Assembly: GCA_958295675.1 (NCBI GenBank)
Contig: OY282360.1
Location: forward strand, 658,026-722,025
Reading direction: 5' to 3'
Length of the DNA stretch: 64,000 bases
Source of the DNA: Minisyncoccota bacterium
Lineage (GTDB): Bacteria > Patescibacteriota > Minisyncoccia > Phycocordibacterales > JABAAK01
Under the pieces are notes generated by a model that saw only the letters and a program-made list of their open reading frames with translations, did not search any database and was not told the origin of the DNA. Position 1 is the first letter of the stretch; each line of letters begins with the position of its first letter. Below are positions 6,265 to 45,651 of the stretch, piece by piece. The translations under genes were made by a program, and so were the position numbers.

Positions 6265-9200
6265 TTATTCTTCGAATGTCCAATCACTAACATCTTCAGC
6301 ATCAAAGATAGACCAACCAGAGAACCAATCGGTGTTGTTGCTGTTCGCCATACCATCCTCATCTAACGAATTCGGCGACCAAACAAAGTTATGAGCGGTC
6401 TTTGCTGCTCCTATTTCCAAGCCAACTTGCTTATCAGCATCAGGCTTGTTGTCGGCAACCAAGTCAATCGTGATGGATGCATCATCAGGAACACCGCCAA
6501 CATTAGCAGTAACTAAGAATTTTACAGGTCTGCCGTCGTCATCAATGGTCTGAATCTTGTTATCAGCAAACGAAAATTTCAGATTATCGCCGCTCAAAGT
6601 ACCGGTTGCAATAGAATCTACACCTGTTGAACCACGACGGAGGTTGAAGTCGCTGAGAATGGATGTATTCCCAGTCACTGAGAGAGTAACTTGACCAAGA
6701 TACACTTCACCTGCGTCATCCGGTACAGTAACCTCAAACTCGTAGAGTTTTTGATTATTACCTCGCTTGTATCTGTTATCGTCTCCATTACCGCTTGCGG
6801 ACACAGTCGGCACCGATGGGAATGCAACCGCAGAGGTTACATTGCCTGAAGGAATGGTGTGTGCGGTTACAGTTTCGGTATCACTCTCACTACCTTCCCA
6901 AACAACCACTAACTTAGCGGCCTGCAGGTACTGACCTGCCTTACCACTATTCTGACTATCACGAATGCCATGTAGATCAAGCTCAATAGTCGCGTTAACA
7001 TCACCATCGGCAACCCTAACGGTCTCGTTCACATTCTCAAATGCAAGTGCATTTTCTACATTTACCGTACCAGCACCTGGATCCACATCAGTCAAAGTAC
7101 CCACAAAGTCACCGCCATCGGCATTGGTTGTCTCGCCATCAATAGTCAAAGTAGCACTCTGTAGCAGTCGCTCAATAGCACTCCGATTCACCGGCGTAGG
7201 ACCTGCGGGAAGTGTCAAACCGGAAAGGTAGACATCCTGAATAACGGCATCTTCCTGTTCTGCTTCAAACTTAATTTTAAGGATATCAACACCGTCCACA
7301 CCTCTTTCGCCGACAGCAACAGCAGTCAGTGTTTCGTCAGGGTCTCTAGATACAACAGAGAGTGTTCCCATACCAGACACTGCGATGATGTCGGAAGCAT
7401 CACCTGACTCCAAATCGTACTCAAAGTCATCCCGTCCAATTTCGTACTCAATACGATCCTTGTCAGATGCACGCACTTCGGTCTTCAATTGGAACTTGTG
7501 TCCGTTCTTCGCATTATCGTCAATACTGCAGACAATCTGCAGATAAGACTCTTCACCAGAATCAACGGTGTAATCGTCAAATCTGAACCGAATCTGATCA
7601 TCTTCAGGTGCATCTGCATCACCACCAGTACCACCTACTTCATCGTCATCACCCAAATCAGCCATACCGGTCAAGCTGCTGCGTGAATCGGCAACCTTAT
7701 CATCTCCGTCGTAGACTGCACAGTCATTCAAATCATCAAGGTTTGCTGGATTATCGTTACTGGATCCGTCTACCGCTTCTCCGCCTGATGCTTCAAAGGT
7801 GAGGTACGCACTGGTAATCTCAACATCGTCAACTGCATCATCTGCATCAATTTCCAGTGTACCGAAGACAACATCATCAGCACCGCCAACGAAAGAATCA
7901 TCATCAACATCGCGATCAGAAATCCTGAAGTTAACGACATTACCCTTGATATCTACCTGCTCAAACGCGCGGTTGCTGGCGAAATACTCGCCGGTACCGG
8001 CGTAGTCCTTCTCGGACCGCACACCCTCCGCACTATCAACATCAGTCAGGGTGAACTGCAGATCCGCGCCGTCAAACTGACTCCATGCTTCGTCAAGATC
8101 CGCGACTACTTCAAACACAACTTCGCGTTCGCCACGAACATCAACGGTAAAGGTGTCGGAGAAATCAACAGTTTCGGTGATGGCATTGCTGGAACTAGGT
8201 TTACTGAACTCAACATCATCATCCGCGAATGCTACCTTCTCGCCGTCAACGCGCAGATGCAAACCTCGCAGAACAACCTCATCCTCATCAGCGTCTTTCC
8301 AGTCGTTATCATTTCCAGTATTATACCTGAACCCACTCAACTCAACATCAAAAGTAAGGTCTTCCATCTCAACATCCTCACCTTCAAATTCAACCTCAAG
8401 TGCGCCAAGCACGCGGTCATCACCGTAGACAACCTCATCTTCAAAGCCGCGAATTCTGCCACCGGAACTTACTTCACCCGGCTGAATAGTCGCCACTTCA
8501 CCTTCAACATTGCTGTTGCCTTCTATCTGTCTTTCGTTACTACCGAGAGAAACAGGAAGGCCATATCCGTAGTCCTTACCGACAACATACACATCAACTA
8601 CATCATCAAGGTAAAACCTGATGGTTTCGTCGGTACCCCTGTCGGTGTTCATCTCAACCGATACCGTGATACTGTCGCTCTCTTCAATCAGCGCGCCGCG
8701 ACCGCCAAAGGTGATGACATATCGGTCACCGTCAACGGTTACATCGTGATCAACTTCGTCGTCGTCAACATACACCGTCACATCACCAATCTCATCCTCA
8801 TCCGCGGAACCGTTCTGATCAAGTGTCAGAGAACGAAGATATGCGTCTTCTTCGTCAGCACCTGATCCGCCGAGACTGATACGCACGGAAGCGACTTCAG
8901 TATCCTCGTCAAGATGCACTTCCGATTCAACGCTTTTAACACGCACACTCGCTGTCTGCAGTTGCACACTGCTTGACATCACATGCGCCGCGCCGCGAAC
9001 CGGGAATTGACCCTGCACTGCCGCGTCAGCGATAACCTCGGATACTTCAAGACCCGCGATAGCACCGGAATCAAGGTCGCTTGACTCGTTAGTAATATTA
9101 CCGACAACAACAAGAGTGATAGACCGATTTCTCGGAATAACAAAGTTGCCCCCGAGTGTCGCTTCGTCACGACTGTTGAGAGATCGGGAACTGCCGATCT

Positions 9201-9963
9201 GCACACCGTTCACATCAACCAGTGCGACAGTTTCAAAGTTGCTTCTGGAAGATAATCCGAATCGGCGCACTCTGATGCCCTCAATACGGACATCTTCATT
9301 GCCTGCTGTGAGCACAAATGAGGTGAATGGCACCCGCTGTGCGCCCTGCACGGCATATGAGTCGCCAGGCTGCTGCCCGGCTGTTACTGCCAACGATCCT
9401 CCGGTAACACTGACACGGGTCGTCGGAGTTGTCGGAGCTACAGGCACCGACGGCAGATTTGTTGTTGGCTGCGCGGTACCACACACATTATTCGCTTGAT
9501 TTCGCGTTGATGTGTAGAATCCGCCGGTTCCGCTCGTCAACCCAATGGGAGCCAAAATCTGCGCGGAGTGTAACTCCTGGAACTTACTGACTGCTCGAGC
9601 AGTCGCAGGTCCATAGTAGGTGGTCTCATTGCCGGGAGATCCAGCTCCTGACGAAGCCACCTGAGTTTGAGGGTTACCATTCAGGAATCTTTGCAACTGG
9701 CGGACGTCATCGCCAGAAGATCCGATGGAAAGGTTCCTTGCCCATGTGTACGGACACGCAGCATTGCTGCTCGCCGCCGCAACTGTCGCCGGCGGTGTTG
9801 TCGCGCCGCTAAGCGCGGTCAACTGTGCCGTTAGCGCGGCAAGCTGTGCCTGCAAATCTTCAACGCTCTCCTGTGCATGTACTGTCGCCGAAAAGGCAAC
9901 CGCAACAGAAACGATGAAGGCAATAGAAACCAACCCTACAGTTAATTTACTTGCAATATTCAT
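6265..9963 (-). CDS. Large secreted acidic surface protein with an N-terminal signal peptide and a PG_binding_1-like domain
   Basis: 1232 aa. Signal peptide MNIASKLTVGLVSIAFIVSVAVAFSATVHA. Motif DDVRQLQRFLN..YYGPATARAVSKFQ. Long D/E-rich beta-type repeats. Confidence 0.7.
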   Translation of the reverse strand: MNIASKLTVGLVSIAFIVSVAVAFSATVHAQESVEDLQAQLAALTAQLTALSGATTPPATVAAASSNAACPYTWARNLSIGSSGDDVRQLQRFLNGNPQTQVASSGAGSPGNETTYYGPATARAVSKFQELHSAQILAPIGLTSGTGGFYTSTRNQANNVCGTAQPTTNLPSVPVAPTTPTTRVSVTGGSLAVTAGQQPGDSYAVQGAQRVPFTSFVLTAGNEDVRIEGIRVRRFGLSSRSNFETVALVDVNGVQIGSSRSLNSRDEATLGGNFVIPRNRSITLVVVGNITNESSDLDSGAIAGLEVSEVIADAAVQGQFPVRGAAHVMSSSVQLQTASVRVKSVESEVHLDEDTEVASVRISLGGSGADEEDAYLRSLTLDQNGSADEDEIGDVTVYVDDDEVDHDVTVDGDRYVITFGGRGALIEESDSITVSVEMNTDRGTDETIRFYLDDVVDVYVVGKDYGYGLPVSLGSNERQIEGNSNVEGEVATIQPGEVSSGGRIRGFEDEVVYGDDRVLGALEVEFEGEDVEMEDLTFDVELSGFRYNTGNDNDWKDADEDEVVLRGLHLRVDGEKVAFADDDVEFSKPSSSNAITETVDFSDTFTVDVRGEREVVFEVVADLDEAWSQFDGADLQFTLTDVDSAEGVRSEKDYAGTGEYFASNRAFEQVDIKGNVVNFRISDRDVDDDSFVGGADDVVFGTLEIDADDAVDDVEITSAYLTFEASGGEAVDGSSNDNPANLDDLNDCAVYDGDDKVADSRSSLTGMADLGDDDEVGGTGGDADAPEDDQIRFRFDDYTVDSGEESYLQIVCSIDDNAKNGHKFQLKTEVRASDKDRIEYEIGRDDFEYDLESGDASDIIAVSGMGTLSVVSRDPDETLTAVAVGERGVDGVDILKIKFEAEQEDAVIQDVYLSGLTLPAGPTPVNRSAIERLLQSATLTIDGETTNADGGDFVGTLTDVDPGAGTVNVENALAFENVNETVRVADGDVNATIELDLHGIRDSQNSGKAGQYLQAAKLVVVWEGSESDTETVTAHTIPSGNVTSAVAFPSVPTVSASGNGDDNRYKRGNNQKLYEFEVTVPDDAGEVYLGQVTLSVTGNTSILSDFNLRRGSTGVDSIATGTLSGDNLKFSFADNKIQTIDDDGRPVKFLVTANVGGVPDDASITIDLVADNKPDADKQVGLEIGAAKTAHNFVWSPNSLDEDGMANSNNTDWFSGWSIFDAEDVSDWTFEE

Positions 9964-10229
9964 AATCGATTAGGAATTTACTATTACTAATTGAAATAAT
10001 AATTTCAATGGAGTACCCGCTAATTGCGGATACAGATCACACAAAAACAATAAAATGTGTTTGCTCTTCGTGTGATGATTATATTGTATACGCTCCGCAA
10101 ACAGTGTCAAAATGTGCTGTGGAAAAGATGCAATACAACGAAAAATATGTCCTGCTATCATAGACACCTGAACCGACCGCGAACAGGAGAAAAGTGATGC
10201 TGTGTGAACGATGTCCGCGGAGATAAAAA

Positions 10230-12407
10230 GTGTGTGATAATAAAAAGGTATATATGGCGCGCAAAAAAAAGAAAAAAACAATACTCCGTAGATGCGCTGA
10301 CGGGTATCGCACTATTCCCGAGCGCGTCCGGGAAATCATATTCGGCGGCATCGCGACGCTAATCGCGGTGTTTTTCACGCTGGTGCTCATAAACGCTGCC
10401 GGTTCGTTCGGCATGACTATACGCGATACGCTGTTCTTGCGCAGCAACGGTGATCCGGCACTGCTTGGCTGGAGTTTCCTGCTGCTCATCGTGTTCTTCG
10501 CGTTTCTCGGATTGTCTCTTATCGCAAACATTCGACCGATATCGCACCTTCGTCTTTGGATTGGCAGCATGCTCGGCTTTTTCAGTATCGCGACATTTTT
10601 CGCGGCGAGTTTTGATGAGACGGCGGGCGGCAGTATCGGCAACATCGTGTTCAGCGCGCTGCACAATGTGCTCGGCGTATTCTCGTACATCCTTATCCCT
10701 ATCGGCATTCTCGGGTCGCTCTACATTCTCACCATGTTCTCTCCGACTACAATTTGGGATTGGCTTACCAGCCATAGAAATGATGACGAGGACGAAGATG
10801 AGGATGATGAGGAATACGACGATGAAGAAGACGAGGAAGAGTATGATGATAACGATGAAGAGGACGGAGATGAGGATGAATACGACGATGACGAAGAGGA
10901 AGACGACGAATACGAGGATGAAGAGGAGGAGGAAGATGACCGGCAGACACACGGAACAGAGATTGCGGCATACATCCCGCCGCCATTGGCATTGCTAAGT
11001 TCAGAACGAGGAAAGGGACGCGCGGAAAATACCAAGGCGCAGGCGCAGACAATCGCCCGCACACTCAAAAATTTCAAAATATCAGTTACAGTTGAAGAGG
11101 TCACCGTCGGTCCGACCTTCACCCGTTACGCGGTGCGTCCGGCTGAGGGCATACGACTGTCAAAAATCACCGGACTGCAGCAAAATCTTGAGCTTGCACT
11201 GGCAGCACACCCAATTCGAATTGAAGCACCGATCCCGGGCGAATCGCTGGTCGGTATTGAGGTGCCGAACTCCGCTCGTGCGACCGTCGGACTGCGAACA
11301 CTGCTTGAATCAAGCGAGTTTGAGAAAACAAGGGGTGCATTGCCGCTCGCGATCGGCAAAACAATCAACGGATCAGTATTCGCGAAAAGTTTATCAAAAA
11401 TGCCGCACGCATTGGTCGCCGGCACAACCGGATCGGGAAAAAGCGTGCTGATACACAACTTCATCCTGTCGCTTCTGTTTTCGTACGGTCCGCGTGATCT
11501 TCGCTTTATCTTCATAGATCCGAAACGGGTTGAACTGACATTGTATAAAGGAATACCGCACCTCTACACCGATCCAATTACGGAACCGAAGAAAGCGCTG
11601 CAGGCACTGGTATGGGTGGTAAACGAGATGGAGCGGCGGTATGAACTGCTTGAAGAACGCGGTGCTCGCGGCATTATCTCGTACAACGATGCCATTGAAA
11701 ACGAGGAAGAACGAATGCCGTACCTCGTGGTAGTAGTGGATGAGCTTGCCGACCTGATGCAGAGTTTCCCGCGGGAAATTGAGGGCAATATCGTCCGTAT
11801 CACACAAAAAAGCCGTGCGGTCGGCATCCATCTCATCATCTCCACGCAACGACCGTCAGTGAATATCATCACCGGCGTGGTAAAGGCAAATGTACCGGTG
11901 CGTGTCGCGTTGCAGGTGGCATCCGGCATTGATTCACGAACCATTTTAGACGCAACCGGTGCCGAAAACCTGATCGGTTCCGGCGATTTGCTCTTCGGTT
12001 CCGCCGAAAGCAAGAAACCGGTACGGGTGCAGTCGGCGTTCATTGATGAGCGGGAGGTGAAAAAAGTCGCGCAGCACATTATACGGGAAAACGGTGTCGC
12101 TGAAAATCTGATTGATGTGACACAAAAACAAAAGGGCGGAAACAGCGGCAGCTTTAACACGGACGATGATGATGACGATCTGTACGCCGACGCGCGGGAC
12201 ATTGTTATAACAGCAAAAAAGGCATCCACCTCCCTGCTTCAGCGCAAACTGAAAATCGGCTATTCCCGCGCCGCGCGACTGATTGATATGCTTGAAGAGC
12301 ACGGTGTGGTGGGACCGCAAATCGGTTCAAAGCCGCGGGAAATACTGGTTGAAAATAGTGATGACGGATTTGATGACGAAATGGAACACGCGGAACGGAA
12401 TGAATAG
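10230..12407 (+). CDS. ftsK: DNA translocase FtsK/SpoIIIE with a poly-acidic linker
   Basis: N-terminal TM segments. Walker A GTTGSGKS. VVVVDELADLM. C-terminal gamma domain LLQRKLKIGYSRAARLIDMLEE. The start could also be the Met at 10254. Confidence 0.9.
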   Translation: MCDNKKVYMARKKKKKTILRRCADGYRTIPERVREIIFGGIATLIAVFFTLVLINAAGSFGMTIRDTLFLRSNGDPALLGWSFLLLIVFFAFLGLSLIANIRPISHLRLWIGSMLGFFSIATFFAASFDETAGGSIGNIVFSALHNVLGVFSYILIPIGILGSLYILTMFSPTTIWDWLTSHRNDDEDEDEDDEEYDDEEDEEEYDDNDEEDGDEDEYDDDEEEDDEYEDEEEEEDDRQTHGTEIAAYIPPPLALLSSERGKGRAENTKAQAQTIARTLKNFKISVTVEEVTVGPTFTRYAVRPAEGIRLSKITGLQQNLELALAAHPIRIEAPIPGESLVGIEVPNSARATVGLRTLLESSEFEKTRGALPLAIGKTINGSVFAKSLSKMPHALVAGTTGSGKSVLIHNFILSLLFSYGPRDLRFIFIDPKRVELTLYKGIPHLYTDPITEPKKALQALVWVVNEMERRYELLEERGARGIISYNDAIENEEERMPYLVVVVDELADLMQSFPREIEGNIVRITQKSRAVGIHLIISTQRPSVNIITGVVKANVPVRVALQVASGIDSRTILDATGAENLIGSGDLLFGSAESKKPVRVQSAFIDEREVKKVAQHIIRENGVAENLIDVTQKQKGGNSGSFNTDDDDDDLYADARDIVITAKKASTSLLQRKLKIGYSRAARLIDMLEEHGVVGPQIGSKPREILVENSDDGFDDEMEHAERNE

Positions 12408-16388: not shown

Positions 16389-17450
16389 TCAGAATTTTTT
16401 CAGTTTTTGCAGTTTGCCGGATTCAACATCACTGAAAAATTCCTGAATGACACCGGCAAGCGGTACGGCGATGAGAACACCGACAAATCCGGCAATTGAA
16501 CCGCCGACAACAACGGCGAGAATGATGAGTACTGATGAAATGCCGACAACCTTGCTGACCACGAGCGGATAAATGAGCGCGCTCTCAAGCTGCTGAATGA
16601 TAACAAACACACCGATAACAAGCAGAACAAGCGTGATGTCACCGGTGGTCAGTGCCATAAGCACAGCGGGAATCGCGCCGATAACCGGACCGAAAATCGG
16701 TATCACCTCCATCAAACCAGCGAATACGGCAAGGAACAGCGCGTTCTGAATACCGAGCACAGATAGCGCGAAATAGACAAGCGCACCGACAATGCACATA
16801 AGTACCAGTTGTCCCTGAAACCACTGACCCATCTTCACCTGCGTACGCTTCCACAAATCCTCAACATACGCACGGTACCTGATCGGCGTGACAACATGCA
16901 GAAAAGTGTCAAGTGATTTCGGATTAACCGCGAACAGAAAAGTGAGCAACAAAAAGAGAATAATATTTACAATGCCGCCAAAAATGGACAGCACACTCGC
17001 GCCGGTCGACTTGATAAACGACTGCGCGAACTGATTGGAATCAGCGAACACGGCGGATAATTGATCGCCGGCGACAAGACCTTCAAAAATCGTGCCGTCA
17101 AACCAGCCGCGGACCACCTCAAACAAACTCGGCAGCGCATCAACAAACACCTGATATTGCTGTACAAAAATCGGAAACAGGGAGTATGCACAAAACGCGA
17201 AAATGATGAAGACGACAACATACAGAAGCAACACGGCAATCGGTTCCGGAATCTTGAATCGCATGAGAAACCGCTTACCCGGCGCGAGCGCGAGCGAGAA
17301 AACAACCGCGCTTATGACAATCAGCAGTACGGATTTAATTTCATAGAGAAACCAGCCGACAAGCAGAAAAAACAGTACCAATAAAACGGTTCCTGATGTT
17401 ATATTAACGGCAATCGGTTTCTCACGCATATCATATAGAGTGTAGCACAC
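16389..17450 (-). CDS. AI-2E family transporter (PerM/YdiK-like, UPF0118)
   Basis: 8 TM helices. MEVIPIFGPVIGAIPAVLMALTTGD motif. Confidence 0.8.
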   Translation of the reverse strand: MCYTLYDMREKPIAVNITSGTVLLVLFFLLVGWFLYEIKSVLLIVISAVVFSLALAPGKRFLMRFKIPEPIAVLLLYVVVFIIFAFCAYSLFPIFVQQYQVFVDALPSLFEVVRGWFDGTIFEGLVAGDQLSAVFADSNQFAQSFIKSTGASVLSIFGGIVNIILFLLLTFLFAVNPKSLDTFLHVVTPIRYRAYVEDLWKRTQVKMGQWFQGQLVLMCIVGALVYFALSVLGIQNALFLAVFAGLMEVIPIFGPVIGAIPAVLMALTTGDITLVLLVIGVFVIIQQLESALIYPLVVSKVVGISSVLIILAVVVGGSIAGFVGVLIAVPLAGVIQEFFSDVESGKLQKLKKF

Positions 17451-17473: not shown

Positions 17474-19345
17474 TTATTCAACAACCACACCAGAACGATA
17501 ATCAAACGGTTCGGAGGTGATGCGTGTCGTAAGCTCAGAAATTGTACCCTTGAACACTTCATCCACAAAGGTGTCGCGCGCTTCATAGACCGCCTCATCA
17601 GCCAAAATAACTTCCTGACCCGCATCACGGGATGATGGTGTGAAGGCAACCTGGAATTCAATAGATCTGCCGGAACGCAGTCCTGTCGCGGTCATCGTCG
17701 GCACAGCAACCTGTATTGTATTCGTCTCCTCGTCATGCGACCATTCCTGCGCACTCAGTCCGGAAACCGAACCGGTCATCTCCACATCCCGCCGCAGCGG
17801 CACGGACAGAGAAACATTCGCGAGATCATTGCCGCTGTTCTTGATAAAGTACTTCAGAACATAGGTAGTCCGCTGACCGACCCTCGGCGGTATGGGACCT
17901 GAATTCTCTATTGTACTCGTCTGATACAGCGTAGTGCCGGTCGCCTGCAGAACGCTGCGTACATTGACCCGTCCGACCGCAATATTCTGAATGCGCTCGG
18001 TCTTGCCGGTACTTATACGCTTCGCGCGCGCGGAAACACGCACTTGCACATTTTTCTGAGGTTGGCTGAACTCAATCCGATTCGGCAGCGCGTTGAATTT
18101 AAATGAGAGAATACCGCTCTCGCCGGCACTAACCGACGCGAATGAGCGCAGCTGCTTCTTGTCCCACACAATTTCCCGTTTTACCTCATCAAAATAGCCC
18201 CTGTTGCTCCTGATACTGCTCTCATTCAGTCCTGTGCCGGCAATCTGCGCGGTAATAACTACATCCTCCAACTGCGCTAAATCCAAATTTGACCATGCAA
18301 TATCAACATCCACCTCATCACCGGGAGACACAATGATCACTTGCTCTTGCTCATTGCCGAACTTCAGCCCGATATCAAGAAACGACTTCGCTATGGTAAG
18401 CACAGCACTTTCCTCGGCAATAACAGTCGCTTCGGCAGGATCACCGGTCGGCACCGCGAACAAACGCGCTACAATGGATTGTTCATCACGCTCGGTTCCG
18501 CGAATCACGCCGCGTACTGTGATGATTTGCTCCTCATTCGGCTTCAGTTGTTTGATAGTCCATGAGGTCTGCTGTGCATCAAACGGTTCCGGAGAGAACG
18601 AACGCGGTGTGAAACCGGGAGGATAAGTCAATTGCACATATGATTTTGGAGTCACCTTCGCGGTATTTGACTGTATCTTCACAGTAAAGGTTATTTCTTT
18701 TCCCGCAACCGGATTACTGTACTGCGGCATACCGAGTAATAGCGGTGCGGTACGCAGGAGTACATCATAGGTCTCTTTCACACGGGTCGGTTGCATGGAA
18801 CCCTCCGCCCGATAGGTCAGGGTGTATGTTATAGTTTTTTTCTCCCCTGCCGTGCCATACAGTAACGGCACGACTGACCCGCTAACCACCTCACCGGAAT
18901 CAATAACATCCCAATTAAACATATCCCCGGTCGGACGAACGATACCATCACCCTGCTTCCGGTACGATCCGGGCGGATAATCAACCTCAAACGTCACATC
19001 CCATATAGGTACGGGATTTCTGTTCGCGATGCGTATGGTAAGCGGAACCGTTGAACCCCCCTCAACCACCTTCTCTCCCTGGGTCACAATAGTGATTTTA
19101 CTGGTTGAAACAGTCCGATCAATGCCGGCAATCCGCACGAAAGACGCTATACCAACCGCGGCGAGAAAAAAAAGGAAAGTGATAACAGCAAGAATCAAAA
19201 GATATTTGGACGCTTTCGGTGTCTCAACATCCTCCTTCCAGTCGGTCTCTAAATCTGACTCTTCCCGTTCCAATTTTACTTTCCTATCAACAGCCCGCCT
19301 TTTCGTGTTGTGATAAAGAATTTTTGAAACATCCCGTAACCGCAT
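17474..19345 (-). CDS. Membrane-anchored hypothetical protein with repeated beta-sandwich-like domains
   Basis: 623 aa. N-terminal charged region then a TM helix (YLLILAVITFLFFLAAVGIASFV). Repetitive T/V-rich domains. Confidence 0.5.
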   Translation of the reverse strand: MRLRDVSKILYHNTKRRAVDRKVKLEREESDLETDWKEDVETPKASKYLLILAVITFLFFLAAVGIASFVRIAGIDRTVSTSKITIVTQGEKVVEGGSTVPLTIRIANRNPVPIWDVTFEVDYPPGSYRKQGDGIVRPTGDMFNWDVIDSGEVVSGSVVPLLYGTAGEKKTITYTLTYRAEGSMQPTRVKETYDVLLRTAPLLLGMPQYSNPVAGKEITFTVKIQSNTAKVTPKSYVQLTYPPGFTPRSFSPEPFDAQQTSWTIKQLKPNEEQIITVRGVIRGTERDEQSIVARLFAVPTGDPAEATVIAEESAVLTIAKSFLDIGLKFGNEQEQVIIVSPGDEVDVDIAWSNLDLAQLEDVVITAQIAGTGLNESSIRSNRGYFDEVKREIVWDKKQLRSFASVSAGESGILSFKFNALPNRIEFSQPQKNVQVRVSARAKRISTGKTERIQNIAVGRVNVRSVLQATGTTLYQTSTIENSGPIPPRVGQRTTYVLKYFIKNSGNDLANVSLSVPLRRDVEMTGSVSGLSAQEWSHDEETNTIQVAVPTMTATGLRSGRSIEFQVAFTPSSRDAGQEVILADEAVYEARDTFVDEVFKGTISELTTRITSEPFDYRSGVVVE

Positions 19346-19400
19346 GCAATACAGTATACAGTATCAGGTACTTAAAAACGGTCGGTATTGTACAATACGC

Positions 19401-19979
19401 ATGATGGAAAACACATACGCGGTACTTATAACCGATGCATTTATACTCCACACACGCGGAATCGGAGAAGCAGATAGGATAGTAACCGCACTGACACGGG
19501 AAAACGGAGTCATTGATATATTCGCGCGCAGTATTCGCAACGAACGGGCGAAGATGCGCGGCACCGTCAAACCATACAGTCGGGTATCGCTCTCCGCTGT
19601 GATAGGAAAAAGAAATATACTGAAAGATATCACAACAACCGACACACTCAGTGCGATTTGGCGGGAAAAAGAAAAATACACAGCATATGTGAATCTTCTG
19701 CAATTTGTCCGCACACAGGTACCCGCTGTCTCCGCAAAAGACAAACATCTGTTCCCTATAATTGAAAACGGAACGAGATACCTACAGGAATCAGAGGCGA
19801 AAAAATCTCCGGACATACTGCTCGTCGCACAGGTATCGCTGCTCAGCGCTCTCGGCTATGTGCACGACAAAGATATTGAACACAACACATTTGAAAAAAT
19901 ACTACACGACACCTCTATCTCAACAAAGCGGCGGAAAGACCTAAGTCAGCACCTGCGCCACGCATTGCTGCACCAATGA
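19401..19979 (+). CDS. recO: Putative DNA repair protein RecO (N-terminal OB fold)
   Basis: AVLITDAFILHTRGIGEADRIVTALTRENGVIDIFARSIR resembles the RecO N-terminus. Confidence 0.45.
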   Translation: MMENTYAVLITDAFILHTRGIGEADRIVTALTRENGVIDIFARSIRNERAKMRGTVKPYSRVSLSAVIGKRNILKDITTTDTLSAIWREKEKYTAYVNLLQFVRTQVPAVSAKDKHLFPIIENGTRYLQESEAKKSPDILLVAQVSLLSALGYVHDKDIEHNTFEKILHDTSISTKRRKDLSQHLRHALLHQ

Positions 19980-19982
19980 TGG

Positions 19983-22900
19983 TTAGCGAAATATTTTTCC
20001 CGGCCGCTCAACGAGCAGTACGGATATGTCCATGCCATCAATAATAATCGTCCGTCCGTCCGGAATAGGTTTCGCGCTGTAGATGATTGTGCTTACCCTT
20101 GTTTCCTTCTTTATTGTTTCCTCATATTCCTGTATATGCTTTTGCTGTTCAACAGGAATACAGATGTGCATCTCATGCACCGTTTCAGTAAGCGAAAGAT
20201 TCATTTCCTTGCGTATACTCTGAATGTTACGGACATATTCCCTACTGAACCCTTCGGAACGGAGTTCCGGTGTCAGAATCGTGTCGAGGACAACCTCATC
20301 TTTCGCGCCGGAATTAACAAGAACCTCTTTCACATTCAACTCATCGGCAATGATGGTACGCACCGCGACAGGTATATTTTGCTGAATAGTCACACGCATC
20401 AGCGGCTGCCGCACCTTTATACCCGCTTCCGACCGCTGCTCATGCGCAAGAGAAACAATGCGACGGGCGGTATTCATCGTCATGATACTGCGCGTATTGA
20501 CGGACATACCGCGCGGCCACCGGCACAAATGCACACTCTCCGGAACCAAAACAGAAAACATCTGAAATTTCTGCATACTCAAAAACAGATGCTCCGCATA
20601 AAACGGCGCGACAGGGGCAATACACTTCGCGAATTCAGTCAGCACAAAACGAAGCGTCTCACGCGCATGCGCACCGTCTTTGGTGTCATACCGTATCCTG
20701 TCCCGTGATCGGCGCAGATACCAAACAGATAAATCTTCAACAAACGCGCTGATAGGAGCAACCGCGACATCAAGACGGTAGCTCTCAAATCCCTTCGTGA
20801 TGGCGGCATGCGTTTCAGCAAAGCGGGAAAGAAGATATATATCAAGCGGATGACGGCTTCCCGCGACATGCGGCAAATGCGCATAAGCGGCATAGAAATT
20901 AAAACAGTTGTGCAGCCGCATATACACCTTTTTGTAAATCTCATCAACCTGCTCATCATTAAAATCAAGCGTCTCGCCGCGCATCACCGGAGAACCGAGC
21001 AGATAATGACGGAGCGCATCCGCACCGTACCGATTAACAACATCCATCGGATCGGAATAGTTTTTCAAACGCTTGCTCATTTTCTTGCCGTCCGCGGCGC
21101 GGATAATGCCGGTCGCGACTACCTGCCGGTACGGTGCTCTGCCGAACGCACCCACACCGATAGCGAGCAAACTGTAAAACCAACCGCGTGTTTGATCCAA
21201 TCCTTCGCAGATAAAATCGGCGGGGAATCCTTTATTCCGCGCCGGATTAAAAAGGGGTGTATCCACAAAGGGATAATACTGCGACGCGTACGGCATCGCA
21301 CCCGACTCAAACCAACAGTCAAACACTTCCCTGACATGTCGCGCCGGATTGCCGTCATCATCATACAGAACGACATCATCAATGTACGGTCGATGCAAAT
21401 CCACATCTCCGTCTTCAGTCCGCTTCACCGGCTTATACCGAAGCCGGAATGTGCCGGTATTACTGTTCAGCGGCGAAAAATGCTCTTTTAGGTACGAATA
21501 CCGAAACACACCCAAGGACTCCACTCTGCGCGCGCTCACCAACACCGCCTTGTGCGTAACGACGATAATATGCGCGCCGCTATACTGCTTATCCACAGCG
21601 TCAAGAAACTTGAGCATACGGACATACACATCGTTATATGATTCACCCGAACCTATCTTCTTCCGCATATCCCGATACGCTCCGCTTGCCACTGCCGTAT
21701 CCCGCACATCGGCATACGACCTGCCGTGCATATCAGGCAACTGCATCTCAATGATGAGCGGATCCTCAATAACTTTCGCACCGGTCGCTTTTGCTATATA
21801 ATCCGCCGTCTCCCGCGTCCGCTCAAGCGGCGAGGAAAAGATAACGGTCGGCTTAACATCTTTTAATTCCTCGGCAACCTTCCGCGCCTGCGCTTTGCCA
21901 CTCTCTGTGAGTCCCCATCCGCTGCCGGGTTTGCAGTTAAACACCTTCCGTTCGTTGCTGACCGAATGTCCGTGCCGTACAAATGTGTATGTGTTTCTTG
22001 GACGCATTCTTGCAAACATCTCCGAGAGAGAGCCGATGACAAGATACTGACCTGTCTTCTCAACCTGCCATATCGGCAGTGGCGCGCCCCAAAAACGGCT
22101 CCTTGACACCGCCCACGGCTGCGCATCTTTCAGCCAGTTACCGAATCTTCCGTCACGCACATGCTCCGGCACCCAGCGCACCTTCCTATTCTCGGCGACC
22201 ATTTTATCACGGTACCTGTCCGCGTGCACAAACCATGAATCAGCGGCGTAATTGAGCAGCGGTGTACTGCAACGCCAGCAAACCGGATAGCTGTGTTCAA
22301 TATCTTCACTGTGCAGCAATACACCTTTCTTTCGCAGCGCATCCAGTATCTTGTCATCCGTCTCTTTCGGATTTCCCTGCTCTTTCGGACGCAAACCGGC
22401 GAACGGACCGAGTTTGGAAATGAACACACCATCCTTTGAAACATGGTGGCGAATCGGCAGACCATGCTTCTCGGCGGTTTCCATATCGTCTGAGCCGTAT
22501 GCAGGCGCAAGATGCACGATACCGGTGCCGACTTCGGTGTCTATGTACGGCACATCGTACACACGCCAAATTTTCTCCGATACTCTGTCATCTTTTTCAT
22601 CCGCGTACAAAAAATCAAACGGCGGCAGATACTCTTCACCGATAAAATCAGAACCCTTCTTAGTCGCTGTTATATGTCCGTTTTTAAAAAGATGCGCCGC
22701 ATTGCTATGGACAATGTACCGCTTGCCGTTTTCCTCAACAACCGCATACTCAATATCACGACCGATACCGAGCGCGACATTGCCGAACAATGTCCATGGC
22801 GTGGTTGTCCATGCGACAAAAAAAGTATTTGCATACGCTTTCATCGGAAACAATGTGTATACCGCGGTATCAGTGAGCATTTCATAACTGTCAGCAACTT

Positions 22901-23522
22901 CTGTATTAGAAACTGTTGTTGAACATCTCGGACAAAGATGCAGCGATTTAAATCCCCTGCTTACAAAACCATTCTTATGCAGACGATGAAAGATTGACCA
23001 TACTGACTCCATATACGAAGCACTAAGTGTGCGGTAGTCATTCTCCATATCCACCCAGCGCCCGATACGGGGAATGATCTTCTTCCATGCGTCAGCATAC
23101 TGCAGCACAAATCTACAGATACCCGTATTGAACTTTTCAATGCCATATTTCTCAATATCGCTCTTGGACTTACTGCCGATCTCCTTCTCCATCTCAACTT
23201 CAAGCGGCAACCCATGGCAGTCCCACCCCCACCGGCGACGGACAATATATCCCCGCATAGTCTTGTAGCGCGGAATCGCATCCTTCACCGCGCTCGCCAA
23301 AATATGCCCATAGTGCGGAAGCCCTGTCGCAAACGGCGGTCCGTCATAGAAAATAAAGTGTTTTTTTTTGAAAAACCGACATACAGTACTCCAAAAACTG
23401 CCGGAAATTCCCTCCTCACTCTTCTCAAAAATACGATGTGTTCGCCAAAATGCAAGTATTTTTTCTTCCCGTTCAACAACCGTCTCTCGCAACGGCATAT
23501 CCTTCCTTTCAGTCATATGCAT
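19983..23522 (-). CDS. ileS: Isoleucyl-tRNA synthetase with an inserted histidine-phosphatase (phosphoglycerate-mutase-like) domain
   Basis: HYGH (PHYGHILAS), GWDCHGLP and KMSKRLKN. Residues about 508-705 carry RHGHS..SSPLERTRETA..VTH, not present in canonical IleRS. Confidence 0.9.
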   Translation of the reverse strand: MHMTERKDMPLRETVVEREEKILAFWRTHRIFEKSEEGISGSFWSTVCRFFKKKHFIFYDGPPFATGLPHYGHILASAVKDAIPRYKTMRGYIVRRRWGWDCHGLPLEVEMEKEIGSKSKSDIEKYGIEKFNTGICRFVLQYADAWKKIIPRIGRWVDMENDYRTLSASYMESVWSIFHRLHKNGFVSRGFKSLHLCPRCSTTVSNTEVADSYEMLTDTAVYTLFPMKAYANTFFVAWTTTPWTLFGNVALGIGRDIEYAVVEENGKRYIVHSNAAHLFKNGHITATKKGSDFIGEEYLPPFDFLYADEKDDRVSEKIWRVYDVPYIDTEVGTGIVHLAPAYGSDDMETAEKHGLPIRHHVSKDGVFISKLGPFAGLRPKEQGNPKETDDKILDALRKKGVLLHSEDIEHSYPVCWRCSTPLLNYAADSWFVHADRYRDKMVAENRKVRWVPEHVRDGRFGNWLKDAQPWAVSRSRFWGAPLPIWQVEKTGQYLVIGSLSEMFARMRPRNTYTFVRHGHSVSNERKVFNCKPGSGWGLTESGKAQARKVAEELKDVKPTVIFSSPLERTRETADYIAKATGAKVIEDPLIIEMQLPDMHGRSYADVRDTAVASGAYRDMRKKIGSGESYNDVYVRMLKFLDAVDKQYSGAHIIVVTHKAVLVSARRVESLGVFRYSYLKEHFSPLNSNTGTFRLRYKPVKRTEDGDVDLHRPYIDDVVLYDDDGNPARHVREVFDCWFESGAMPYASQYYPFVDTPLFNPARNKGFPADFICEGLDQTRGWFYSLLAIGVGAFGRAPYRQVVATGIIRAADGKKMSKRLKNYSDPMDVVNRYGADALRHYLLGSPVMRGETLDFNDEQVDEIYKKVYMRLHNCFNFYAAYAHLPHVAGSRHPLDIYLLSRFAETHAAITKGFESYRLDVAVAPISAFVEDLSVWYLRRSRDRIRYDTKDGAHARETLRFVLTEFAKCIAPVAPFYAEHLFLSMQKFQMFSVLVPESVHLCRWPRGMSVNTRSIMTMNTARRIVSLAHEQRSEAGIKVRQPLMRVTIQQNIPVAVRTIIADELNVKEVLVNSGAKDEVVLDTILTPELRSEGFSREYVRNIQSIRKEMNLSLTETVHEMHICIPVEQQKHIQEYEETIKKETRVSTIIYSAKPIPDGRTIIIDGMDISVLLVERPGKIFR

Positions 23523-25835: not shown

Positions 25836-25958
25836 ACTAATAAAGTAGCACAGTACTGCAAATATCAATCGCATACTTTGGAAAACAGAAATTTGTGGTG
25901 CGAAGTAGAACATGTGCACAAAGAATTGCAATAGGTATTTCACCGTTATAATAAAAAT

Positions 25959-26819
25959 ATGGTAAAAATGACAGATACTGCCATTAGGCAAAAGATACAA
26001 AGAGAAGGACAGTTGTTAGAAAATAGAATATTGTGCGGTAATGCCTCAGATATAATTAAAGGTTTCCCATCCGCTTTCATTGATCTCACTGTTACATCAC
26101 CACCATACGATGAATTGAGAAATTACGAGGGATATAATTTTGATTTTGAGTCCATAGCACAAGAATTATTTAGAGTAACAAAAACTGGAGGAGTTCTTGT
26201 ATGGGTTGTGGGTGATAAGATAAAAAATGGAGACAGGAGTTTGACGAGTTTTAAGCAGGTAATCTTATTTCAAGAATTGGGATTCCGTGTTCATGATGTG
26301 ATGATCTATAAGAAAAAAAACACACCGTTCATGCGATCAAACGGATACACAAACTGCTTTGAATTTATGTTTGTGTTGAGTAAGGGAAAACCAGCAGTGT
26401 TCAACCCGATTCAAATAGACACAGTTAGACAGGGATTAGAAATGCTCACACACAACAAAGGTCCGGATGGTGTGAACAAAAAAATATTAAAGACATTGAA
26501 CAGCAAAAAGACAAAAACAAACATTTGGGAATATGCAGTCGGACTACATGGCTCAACAAGTGATAAAATCGCTTTTGAGCACCCTGCCATCTTTCCAGAA
26601 AAACTCGCAGAAGACCATATTCTCTCTTGGACCAACGAAGGGGATATAGTATTTGATCCGATGTGCGGTTCAGGAACTACCTGTAAAATGGCACAAAAAA
26701 ACAATCGGATTTATGTCGGTTGTGATATCTCAGAAAAATATGTAGAAATTGCTAAAAAAAGAATGGAATGTGTCACTTCCAACTTATCTTTATTTAATAA
26801 ATCTAATAGCTCTTCTTAA
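25959..26819 (+). CDS. Beta-class N6-adenine/N4-cytosine DNA methyltransferase (Type II)
   Basis: Motif IV SPPY (VTSPPYDE) precedes motif I FDPMCGSGTT. AT-rich. Confidence 0.85.
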   Translation: MVKMTDTAIRQKIQREGQLLENRILCGNASDIIKGFPSAFIDLTVTSPPYDELRNYEGYNFDFESIAQELFRVTKTGGVLVWVVGDKIKNGDRSLTSFKQVILFQELGFRVHDVMIYKKKNTPFMRSNGYTNCFEFMFVLSKGKPAVFNPIQIDTVRQGLEMLTHNKGPDGVNKKILKTLNSKKTKTNIWEYAVGLHGSTSDKIAFEHPAIFPEKLAEDHILSWTNEGDIVFDPMCGSGTTCKMAQKNNRIYVGCDISEKYVEIAKKRMECVTSNLSLFNKSNSSS

Positions 26820-27371
26820 AATTTTCACGTCATCTTTAAATCTTCCTATTCCTGTATTACAACTATCACAAATCCAACCTCGTATTTTCCCCGTTTTGTG
26901 ATTATGATCAATGACTACTTTACTGGTAATACCCGCAATAGTTTTTTTGTGGCAAATTGGACATTCAAATGGAATTCTATTCGGCTTTGTTTTCAAAAAC
27001 TTTTTCCTCTCCTTTGAATCAACAGGTACTCCGTCAATGTATCTTCTGCAATCTCTACAAGAGGGTCTTCTAACTGTTCTGTTGTCTTTTGCATTTTGAT
27101 TCTTGTCAAAATGAGAAGTTTTTAATAACTTATGACAAACATTGCAAATCTTTTTTTGAAAATCATCTCCAGTTTTACTAATATTAAAAAATGATATCAA
27201 CTCTCTTTTTATATTCACTCTTTGTCCATTTCTAACAAAAAATACGGAATATTTTTCTCCAATCTTATCCTCAACCATCCCAACATCGTTCTTTTTCAGT
27301 AAAATATTCTTGGAGAATTTCACATCTTTTTTCAGAAAAGCAAATCTTGATTTCTTCTTTTTTATTGTCAT
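26790..27371 (-). CDS. Putative HNH-family restriction endonuclease (Cys-rich), cognate of the 25959 methyltransferase
   Basis: VIDHNHKTGKIRGWICDSCNTG HNH motif plus CxxC pairs. Convergent and overlapping 30 bp with the methyltransferase. Confidence 0.55.
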   Translation of the reverse strand: MTIKKKKSRFAFLKKDVKFSKNILLKKNDVGMVEDKIGEKYSVFFVRNGQRVNIKRELISFFNISKTGDDFQKKICNVCHKLLKTSHFDKNQNAKDNRTVRRPSCRDCRRYIDGVPVDSKERKKFLKTKPNRIPFECPICHKKTIAGITSKVVIDHNHKTGKIRGWICDSCNTGIGRFKDDVKILRRAIRFIK

Positions 27372-41101: not shown

Positions 41102-41364
41102 ATACTCCCATCGTAACAGATGGTATATATTTATGTCAAGTTTCCTAATTTACCAAAGTTGGAGGATTCGCCGGCGGATTGCACATGATTCTCCCGACCC
41201 ACAACAACGCATTTTCTTTTTTTGATTCATTCGTCGCATTTTTCCACGCGCTGTGCGGACACACCATTCGTTTCATCCCGTGCAGTGCATGGAAAGCACT
41301 CTACGATGCGCGCGCAACCAGCCACACGAACGGTAGTGAGTGTATATCTGCTTATTCTACCCAG

Positions 41365-41437
41365 TCCACCCGCCTGGACTCGAACCAGGAACCGCGTGTG
41401 TATAAGACACGTGCTCTACCAATTGAGCTACAGGTGG
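41365..41437 (-). tRNA. tRNA-Ile (anticodon UAU)
   Basis: CCACCTGTAGCTCAATTGGTAGAGCACGTGTCTTATACACACGCGGTTCCTGGTTCGAGTCCAGGCGGGTGGA. Anticodon loop CTTATAC. Confidence 0.8.
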
Positions 41438-44808: not shown

Positions 44809-45249
44809 ATGGCGTATATAACGAACAGAGCGGCAAAACAACACCATGAAATCCTTGACACCGTGCGCGCAGGCATTACCCTGCTCGGCACCGAAGTGAA
44901 GAGTATCAGAAACGGCAAGGGGTCACTGCTCGGCGCGAAGGTACTCATCCGCGACGGCGAAGTATTCCTCGTCGGCGCGACTATTCCGCCATATCAGGAG
45001 AAAAACACACAGCCGTCATACGACCCTGAACGCACAAGGCGACTCCTGCTGAACAGGCGGGAGATTGAAAAACTCAACGCACAGACAGAGACAAAAAACT
45101 TGACCTTAGTGCCGATTAGTATGTATAATTGTAATAGGGTGCTGAAATTGGATATCGGCATCGCCCGCAAGAAAAACGCACGCGATAAACGGGAGACGAT
45201 AAAAAGACGGGAAAGCGAGCGGAGTATCAGGCGGCAAATGAAACACTAG
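44809..45249 (+). CDS. smpB: SsrA-binding protein SmpB
   Basis: ITNRAAKQHHEILD..GTEVKSIRNGK. The long upstream ORF is trimmed to Met148. Confidence 0.85.
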   Translation: MAYITNRAAKQHHEILDTVRAGITLLGTEVKSIRNGKGSLLGAKVLIRDGEVFLVGATIPPYQEKNTQPSYDPERTRRLLLNRREIEKLNAQTETKNLTLVPISMYNCNRVLKLDIGIARKKNARDKRETIKRRESERSIRRQMKH

Positions 45250-45295: not shown

Positions 45296-45651
45296 GGGGG
45301 TGTCAGGCTTTGACAGTTGACATGCCCTGTGAATGGAATGCGTGGTAGTGAGAGGTCACTATAATCACCGAAACCTTGCAAATAAACTTGCACAGATGTT
45401 CAACAGAACACCTGCCCTCGCGTACGCATAACAATGCCCGTGAGGCATCCGCAGGATGATTCTCACTAATCCAAACGGATGTAAGATAATGTGAGAAACA
45501 CGGCGTGCTGTACTACGCTTCAAACAGCATACGAAAAGTAAACGAACGAAGCGGTTTTTGGTCTGTGAGCGAACCTATCGCCCACTACGCCACGAAAACA
45601 TTCTTCGCAGTGTCAATATGGACGGGAGTTCAATTCTCCCCACCTCCACCA
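45296..45651 (+). ncRNA. ssrA: tmRNA (ssrA)
   Basis: 5' GGGGGTG pairs with the 3' CACCTCC-A-CCA, including G3-U70. T-arm GGGAGTTCAATTCTCCC. Internal tag ORF ..gca aat aaa ctt gca cag atg ttc aac aga aca cct gcc ctc gcg tac gca taa (ANKLAQMFNRTPALAYA*). Adjacent to smpB. Confidence 0.85.

Follow-up and report, generated by a model that had tools for sequence, protein, structure and literature searches.

Aminoacyl-tRNA synthetases are known to gain extra domains, and one curated class of isoleucyl-tRNA synthetase (IleRS; NF040702) has acquired an N-acetyltransferase domain of the GNAT kind. A small histidine phosphatase joined to a nucleic-acid enzyme is also on record, in the bifunctional RNase H/CobC-like acid phosphatases (NF005567, PRK07238; Rv2228c type), which are end-to-end fusions. 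The gene described here, ileS of a Minisyncoccota bacterium, lies on the reverse strand of a 64,000-nucleotide stretch of genomic DNA (contig OY282360.1 of assembly GCA_958295675.1, positions 658,026 to 722,025; hereafter the window) and is predicted to encode a bifunctional protein, in which a histidine phosphatase of about 200 residues is nested inside a complete type-2 IleRS (IleRS2).

Each of the described systems resembles a part of this protein. The solved type-2 IleRS of Priestia megaterium (8c8u/8c8v), Thermus thermophilus (1ile) and yeast (8wnd) have the same domain order, the HxGH and KMSKS signatures, the CP1 editing motifs, and the anticodon-binding and IleRS2-type C-terminal domains, but their CP3 loop has no more than a short linker at the point where the window IleRS has about 200 extra residues. 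The phosphatases PhoE (1ebb/1h2e), PspA (4ij5/4ij6), GpgP Rv2419c (4pz9/4qih) and CobC (6nru) have the fold, the size of about 200 amino acids (aa) and the catalytic RHG, Asn, Arg, Glu, GES-Arg and His residues of the insert, but they are free-standing proteins, 18-29% identical to the insert, which falls below every equivalog cut-off. The NF040702 class differs in that its added domain is not a phosphatase, and the window IleRS is not a member, reaching 283 bits where the cut-off is 1999. The phosphatase half of the NF005567 proteins is of the same subgroup as the insert, which matches it with 76 bits (below the cut-off of 326), whereas their partner enzyme is a different one and the insert is nested. 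No description of an architecture combining IleRS with a histidine phosphatase was found in full-text literature searches, the coverage of which lies largely outside subscription journals, and NCBIfam has no model for it, although it has the one for IleRS with GNAT.

The synthetase and its inserted phosphatase domain

The ileS open reading frame (ORF; Table 1) contains no internal stop codon or frameshift, and no N is present in the window; the public copy of the protein (P0052) starts at Met9 (23498). The score of the product against TIGR00392, the NCBIfam ileS equivalog, exceeds the cut-off of 621.4 bits, and the match is split by the insert into two stretches, the first of which ends at residue 512. 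Pfam recognises the class I catalytic domain (PF00133), Anticodon_1 (aa 894-1041) and DUF5915 (aa 1076-1168). In an alignment of 110 homologues with 43-68% identity, K814 and K817 of the KMSKR motif are invariant, as are W238, T239, T240, T241, W243 and T244 of the CP1 motif WTTTPWT, while G332, T333, G334 and H337 of the CP1 motif GTGIVHLAP are invariant or nearly so; the Thr-rich and GTG(I/L)VH motifs are presumably the editing site. The sequence scores 618 bits with P. megaterium IleRS2 (8c8u) versus 265-272 bits with the type-1 enzymes 1ffy and 8c9e, and its best solved relatives (Priestia IleRS2, yeast and Candida cytosolic IleRS, and Thermus IleRS) lie at 583-618 bits, with every PDB alignment interrupted at residues 500-506 of the query. 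The full protein was modelled with AlphaFold2 on the basis of the 110 homologues; the model has a mean predicted local distance difference test (pLDDT) score of 92.5 and a predicted template modelling (pTM) score of 0.87, and superposes on 8c8u/8c8v, 8wnd and 1ile with template modelling (TM) scores of 0.78-0.87 (target-normalised; 0.78-0.83 for 8c8u/8c8v alone); no extra domain is present in the solved IleRS structures compared. On these sequence features, the window protein is assigned as a complete, editing-competent IleRS of type 2 (eukaryote-like). It has lost the zinc cysteines of CP3; these are present in about 60% of its relatives, fused and insert-less alike.

The original prediction had placed a segment of approximately 200 aa (21408-22001, corresponding to aa 508-705) between the LVIGS and DLHRPYID blocks of ileS, where canonical IleRS was said to have a short linker, and had recognised in it three signatures of the histidine phosphatase superfamily. 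That placement is borne out by the boundaries in Table 1 and by the linkers of insert-less type-2 enzymes, and all three signatures (VRHGHSVSN, SSPLERTRETA and VVTHKAV) are present. On the N-terminal side, the order of conserved blocks is GRFGNWL (aa 458-464), WAVSRSRFWGAPLPIW (aa 470-485) and LVIGS (aa 494-498), so that the insert lies between the IGSxxE(L/M) element and the DLHRPYID element of CP3. Residues 466-479 of the window IleRS align with the CP2-CP3 linker of the yeast enzyme, 453-ARDWNVSRNRYWG-465. In yeast IleRS (ScIleRS), CP3 comprises residues 459-526 and the linker ARDWNVSRNRYWG is part of the pocket for reveromycin and the tRNA 3' end (PMC7955072); in Candida IleRS (CaIleRS), CP3 comprises residues 473-534, and the topology and zinc content of CP3 vary among IleRS (PMC7191050); and the CP3 of human IARS1 offers an exposed surface on which LARS1 docks (PMC13439101). 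From the yeast and Candida CP3 boundaries and the linker alignment, the phosphatase is placed in a surface loop of CP3, the small subdomain next after the WxxSRxRxWG linker, which lines the tRNA 3'-end pocket.

The insert matches Pfam His_Phos_1 (PF00300) over aa 514-662 (E=1.3e-32; 113.5 bits against a gathering cut-off of 21.7), and the solved proteins closest to it in sequence are Hydrogenobacter PspA (4ij5, E=2e-10), Bacillus PhoE (1ebb/1h2e), TIGAR, mycobacterial GpgP and CobC. In the alignment with PhoE, the RHG motifs coincide, and R568, E592, GES-R635 and H657 correspond, respectively, to the second arginine, the acidic catalytic residue (the glutamate of 'rEi'), GER-R and the TH(G) histidine of PhoE. 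The domain is predicted confidently both within the full-length model (pLDDT 91-98 over the insert) and as a separate model of aa 486-745 (pLDDT 89.3, pTM 0.88), for which the fold matches are PspA (4ij6), PhoE (1h2e), GpgP (4qih) and a phosphatase of the riboflavin pathway, with target-normalised TM scores of 0.75-0.78. The models indicate a complete small branch-1 histidine phosphatase fold of the PhoE/PspA/GpgP kind. Free-standing phosphatases of this small kind are usually dimeric, and IleRS is monomeric.

The further suggestion that the insert is phosphoglycerate-mutase-like is correct at the level of the superfamily but not in the narrow sense, as the nearest solved proteins are small phosphatases rather than mutases. 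Its score is far below the cut-offs for phosphoglycerate mutase proper (dPGM_arch, 75.6 against 225; GpmB, 50.2 against 261; PRK01295, 23 against 316), and likewise for alpha-ribazole phosphatase CobC (TIGR03162, 84.5 against 162.9) and phosphoserine phosphatase PspA (PhserinePhPspA, 71.6 against 350).

Table 1. Features of the ileS locus and of other parts of the window (positions are those of the window).
Feature	Position	Strand	Basis
ileS ORF, stop codon 19983-19985	19983..23522	-	1179 codons; 745.3 bits to TIGR00392; best solved relatives 8c8u/8c8v and yeast 8wnd
IleRS N-terminal part, aa 1-504	22011..23522	-	Rossmann first half with HYGH, CP core, CP1 editing domain, CP2 and first CP3 strands; Pfam tRNA-synt_1 aa 52-505
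HYGH motif, aa 70-73	23304..23315	-	
Inserted histidine phosphatase, aa ~505-707, predicted to be nested in CP3	21402..22010	-	PF00300 match; fold matches; linker of 8-15 aa in insert-less relatives
VRHGHSVSN motif, aa 515-523	21954..21980	-	
R516-H517, RHG motif with putative phospho-accepting histidine	21972..21977	-	Aligned to RHG of PhoE; invariant in 110 homologues, 81/81
SSPLERTRETA motif, aa 563-573	21804..21836	-	
R568, putative second phosphate-binding arginine (SPLERTRETA)	21819..21821	-	PhoE alignment; invariant in 110 homologues, 81/81
E592, putative proton donor	21747..21749	-	Alignment to 'rEi' of PhoE; invariant in 110 homologues, 80/81; D or E in free-standing relatives
VVTHKAV motif, aa 654-660	21543..21563	-	
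H657, putative second catalytic histidine (VVTHKAV)	21552..21554	-	PhoE alignment; invariant in 110 homologues, 81/81
IleRS C-terminal part, aa 708-1179	19986..21401	-	Rest of CP3 (DLHRPYID), Rossmann second half with KMSKR, anticodon-binding domain, IleRS2-type C-terminal domain
DLHRPYID motif, aa 708-715	21378..21401	-	
KMSKR motif, aa 814-818	21069..21083	-	
recO-like gene, convergent with ileS	19344..19979	+	Pfam RecO_N, E=8.8e-15
DUF11/CLIPPER-like repeat protein, 623 aa	17474..19345	-	
AI-2E family transporter	16389..17450	-	
N6/N4 DNA methyltransferase ORF	25959..26819	+	Pfam N6_N4_Mtase, E=4e-43
tRNA-Ile, anticodon TAT (UAU)	41364..41437	-	
smpB	44824..45186	+	
tmRNA gene	45296..45651	+	Tag peptide ALAYA*

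Distribution of the fused and free-standing forms

The nested architecture is real and has been inherited across many Patescibacteria (the candidate phyla radiation, CPR). The 120 best matches to the window IleRS in a database of 5.8 billion proteins (43-100% identity, mostly 1120-1210 aa) all contain both PF00133 and PF00300, and the organisms named among them are Kaiserbacteria, Pacebacteria, Parcubacteria and Patescibacteria. A scan in which each species was represented by one genome gave relatives for 576 of its first 600 pattern matches. The best 80 of the loci all cover the whole insert and its flanks, and in 80/80 the IleRS N-terminal part, the insert and the C-terminal part are joined without interruption in one ORF. 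Nearly all are labelled as Patescibacteria groups or are unclassified, and one is labelled as Gammaproteobacteria. Among the nearest 150 representatives of clusters at 50% identity, the domain is present in 96 and absent from 54, with at least one insert-less IleRS also from Paceibacterota.

An assembly chimera, a read-through of a frameshift or an intein-like mobile insertion might have produced so unusual an architecture, and a 251-aa protein consisting of His_Phos alone (P0002, 52% identical to the insert) resembled at first the product of a split gene. This protein proved to be a piece of a frameshift-fragmented ileS on a long-read contig, and was rejected as a split-gene form. A protein 100% identical to the window IleRS is on record from two contigs (724,510 and 90,889 bases), the G+C content across the insert (0.50-0.55) is even with that of the flanks and the rest of the gene, no Hint or intein domain was matched in Pfam at E<=0.01, and the insert is fully explained by His_Phos_1. 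An artefact is exceedingly improbable, being refuted by the database matches, the related loci and the single ORFs in all 80 species genomes; the survey of homologues and the check for frameshifts, like the His_Phos_1 search and the structure prediction that the original prediction had also proposed, agree with it.

Some related genes depart from the common form. At locus L081 (1102-4635), an ileS close to that of the window is divided among four consecutive gene calls (493, 251, 86 and 288 aa), giving rise to a false entry for a 'free-standing' phosphatase. Five IleRS clusters of 1087-1468 aa (P0197, P0213, P0275, P0292, P0300) have two phosphatase domains in tandem, with catalytic residues in both, and in longer relatives of up to 1859 aa the phosphatase domain is displaced by additional insertions elsewhere in the protein. 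A single origin of the insertion was considered, but neighbour-joining trees of 144 IleRS bodies (minus the insert) and of 221 phosphatase domains are star-like, with fused and unfused members interleaved, and favour neither one insertion nor several.

The insert ranks with the less conserved stretches of the protein, with a mean column identity of 0.46 versus 0.70-0.76 in the catalytic core across the 110 homologues, in which N510, R516, H517, N523, G542, S564, R568, E592, E627, R635 and H657 are nonetheless invariant. In an alignment of 81 sequences (the 80 species-genome loci and the window), R516, H517, R568 and H657 are each kept in 81/81 and E592 in 80/81, while N523, E627 and R635 are also kept in 80-81 of the 81. 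Over the 101 domain copies found in the 96 clusters, R516, H517, R568 and H657 are each kept in 97-100, and E592 in 95, with Asp in three more, while N523, E627 and R635 are kept in about 95; degenerate domains occur in three clusters only (P0177, P0305 and P0310). This pattern is that of an active enzyme rather than of a scaffold, with the catalytic residues under purifying selection, and the insert is probably a catalytically active phosphomonoesterase.

A profile of the insert alone retrieves many free-standing proteins of approximately 187-199 aa with 150-190 bits, as high as the nested copies, one of them annotated as a Patescibacteria histidine phosphatase. By profile score, nothing is closer to the insert than these free-standing Patescibacterial phosphatases (for example P0332 in GCA_020148045.1, P0327, P0336, P0342, P0357 and P0367), which are similar to it in length and neighbourhood, but they are separate genes, their partner IleRS are insert-less, and they have mostly Gln in place of Asn523 and Asp in place of Glu592. 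The R, H, R and H residues are kept in them, and the position of the proton donor is Asp or Glu. All six of the free-standing genes that were placed in genomes lie between argS and an insert-less ileS: five on the same strand as an ileS of 921-981 codons, from which they are separated by 1 nucleotide (L083 of GCA_020148045.1, with the phosphatase gene at 7001-7585 and ileS at 7587-10406, and L085), 555 nucleotides (L086), 12 nucleotides (L087) or an overlap of 4 nucleotides (L088), and the sixth (L089) in the order argS, phosphatase, two inserted genes, ileS. The two genes inserted at L089 (4750-6574) encode a 23S rRNA intervening-sequence protein and a Fic-domain protein. Lower-scoring homologues (n=2, one from a Spirochaete) have unrelated contexts of phosphate metabolism.

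In the fused genomes, ileS is preceded by an argS of the same orientation at 57/80 loci (within 250 nucleotides at 19), and no free-standing phosphatase ORF was found at these 57 loci except for one weak match of 56 bits in L074; no second copy of the phosphatase was found in the 64-kb window. The gene recO is downstream of ileS at four of the unfused loci (L083, L085, L086 and L087) and beside ileS at 27/80 fused loci. Thus, at a single conserved locus, the phosphatase and IleRS form a Rosetta-stone pair, fused in some genomes and encoded by neighbouring genes in others.

The class I HxGH signature varies among these enzymes. In about one quarter of the fused relatives (L001-L080), G/A-x-H-H replaces H-x-G-H (position 70: H in 51, G in 18, A in 4; position 72: G in 51, H in 22, in the species-genome alignment), several of the insert-less IleRS with an adjacent phosphatase gene (L083, L085, L086, L087) have GVHH or GIHH, and the window IleRS has the canonical HYGH. 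A swap from HxGH to G/AxHH has been reported to give IleRS2 hyper-resistance to mupirocin (PMC10485003).

Possible functions of the phosphatase

On balance it is marginally probable that the insert is an active phosphatase functionally coupled to IleRS. Functional partnership is favoured over coincidence because the phosphatase is either a gene beside ileS or a domain inside it; the phosphatase would be associated with IleRS functionally and probably also physically, an association that would have turned covalent in the fused lineages when the neighbouring gene entered the exposed CP3 loop. The histidine phosphatase fold removes terminal phosphoryl groups via a phospho-histidine. Speculatively, the domain might remove a terminal phosphate from something made or used during the charging of tRNA(Ile), the candidate substrates being, in order, pyrophosphate or AMP from amino-acid activation and then a phosphate-blocked tRNA 3' end, although the likelihood of any single candidate is small at most. 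A look in the literature for reports of CPR bacteria without inorganic pyrophosphatase yielded nothing of use. The original prediction had suggested hydrolysis of nucleotides or of the aminoacyl-adenylate, or regulation, as an added activity; the aminoacyl-adenylate is an unlikely substrate, since this class of enzyme removes terminal phosphoryl groups. It may tentatively be suggested, with considerable doubt, that the phosphatase acts in cis with the synthetase, either as a tethered phosphohydrolase that destroys pyrophosphate or AMP at source and so pulls activation forward, or as an end-repair activity that clears a blocking phosphate off the tRNA(Ile) 3' end before charging. If it did, the free-standing argS-phosphatase-ileS form would be the two-protein precursor, and the fused protein would be, to our knowledge, the first known aminoacyl-tRNA synthetase with an integrated phosphohydrolase acting on its own reaction cycle.

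Several observations weigh against functional coupling. The five directly adjacent examples share the gene order infC-rpmI-rplT / smpB / argS / phosphatase / ileS and may represent one clade, in which case they are not independent; the phosphatase gene lies equally near to argS and to ileS, and in the window argS is not adjacent to ileS. Three insert-less relatives (P0217, P0231 and P0232) have no phosphatase gene within 4-8 kb of ileS, indicating that IleRS2 needs no phosphatase. No residue of the IleRS body is specific to the fused state (at a threshold of at least 75% of fused and at most 25% of unfused sequences), which argues against tight mechanistic integration. Adjacent genes fuse easily without a functional link, and the star-like trees establish neither a single origin nor the direction of fusion or fission.

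Some of these points would also suit an ordinary small-molecule phosphatase, acting for example on phosphoserine or on the phosphate of a sugar or cofactor, that has no mechanistic link to tRNA charging and was captured, as a neighbour of ileS, in a streamlined genome by a protein that is essential and constitutively expressed, in a loop that is exposed and tolerant. The nearest solved relatives (PspA, PhoE, GpgP, TIGAR, the riboflavin-pathway phosphatase and CobC) are all metabolic phosphatases, and the invariant residues all belong to generic motifs of the superfamily; the IleRS body without fused-specific residues, the relatives with neither an insert nor a neighbouring copy, and the simple route to fusion that gene adjacency offers are all in keeping with such a capture. 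However, fusions of neighbours are normally end to end, and nesting in an essential catalytic body is rarer, yet it persists here across a very deep radiation, while the stop/start contact of the free-standing gene with ileS suggests translational coupling and the domain has been duplicated in place in five clusters. An unlinked metabolic phosphatase is considered unlikely, though well short of implausible.

That the domain is not catalytic at all, but a structural replacement or extension of CP3, a docking surface for tRNA or protein, or a sensor of a phosphorylated metabolite that tunes IleRS, is improbable. Pseudo-enzymes usually lose the nucleophile, whereas the nucleophilic His, both Arg, the proton donor and the second His are kept in at least about 95% of more than 280 copies of the domain, with decay only in the three degenerate clusters. 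The variability of CP3 from one IleRS to another, in topology and in the presence of zinc (PMC7191050), and its docking of a protein in human IARS1 (PMC13439101) would accord with such a module, as would the pTM of the full-length model, which suggests fixed packing of the domain. More improbable still is a role in detoxification, in which the domain would inactivate a phosphorylated natural inhibitor of IleRS in the manner of resistance domains attached to their targets: no phosphomonoester is known to us among the inhibitors of IleRS, mimics of the adenylate resemble phosphodiesters and are poor substrates for the histidine phosphatase fold, and the data hold no pointer to a toxin. Such a role would nevertheless be in line with a host enzyme of the mupirocin-resistant IleRS2 type, with the hyper-resistance motif G/AxHH in about one quarter of its fused relatives (PMC10485003), and with the existence of the NF040702 class.

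Genomic neighbourhood and implications

The neighbours of ileS in the window are the convergent recO and a gene encoding a CNNM/CBS membrane protein. Beyond recO are the genes of the DUF11/CLIPPER-like repeat protein and the AI-2E family transporter. A gene of the DUF11/CLIPPER type is also found downstream of ileS at L081, L085 and L088, followed at L081 by an AI-2E transporter gene, and because of this recurrence the DUF11/CLIPPER and AI-2E part is regarded as conserved between fused and unfused lineages. At another locus with an insert-less ileS (L092, 329-1722), genes for bAvd and a reverse transcriptase, an accessory pair typical of a diversity-generating retroelement, are located approximately 2 kb upstream of ileS.

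Elsewhere in the window there is a tRNA-Ile gene with a UAU anticodon. Most bacteria read AUA by means of a CAU anticodon that TilS modifies to lysidine, and a UAU isoacceptor is unusual; its presence bears on what the window IleRS must recognise. The smpB gene is directly upstream of the tmRNA gene. A dip in G+C content to 0.34-0.38, at approximately 25850-26900, versus approximately 0.45-0.55 around it, coincides with the gene of an N6/N4 DNA methyltransferase, and this region may be a horizontally acquired remnant of a restriction-modification system.

In the window IleRS, a familiar enzyme contains a nested catalytic domain that had not been described before and that occurs in hundreds of database sequences; the protein represents a widespread, uncharacterised variant of IleRS. 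An apparently active second catalytic domain in the body of a bacterial synthetase, kept across the large radiation of ultra-small bacteria, is new to the literature searched. Public entries are labelled 'isoleucine--tRNA ligase' or 'class I tRNA ligase family protein', and fragments are labelled 'histidine phosphatase family protein'; a dedicated family model would mend these annotations. The CP3 loop proves to be a permissive site for the insertion of a whole domain into IleRS. The occurrence of the phosphatase either fused or adjacent makes it and IleRS candidate functional partners, which is a testable hypothesis, and the identity of the substrate would show whether organisms with reduced genomes couple tRNA charging to the metabolism of phosphate, nucleotides or tRNA ends in a manner unlike that of other bacteria.

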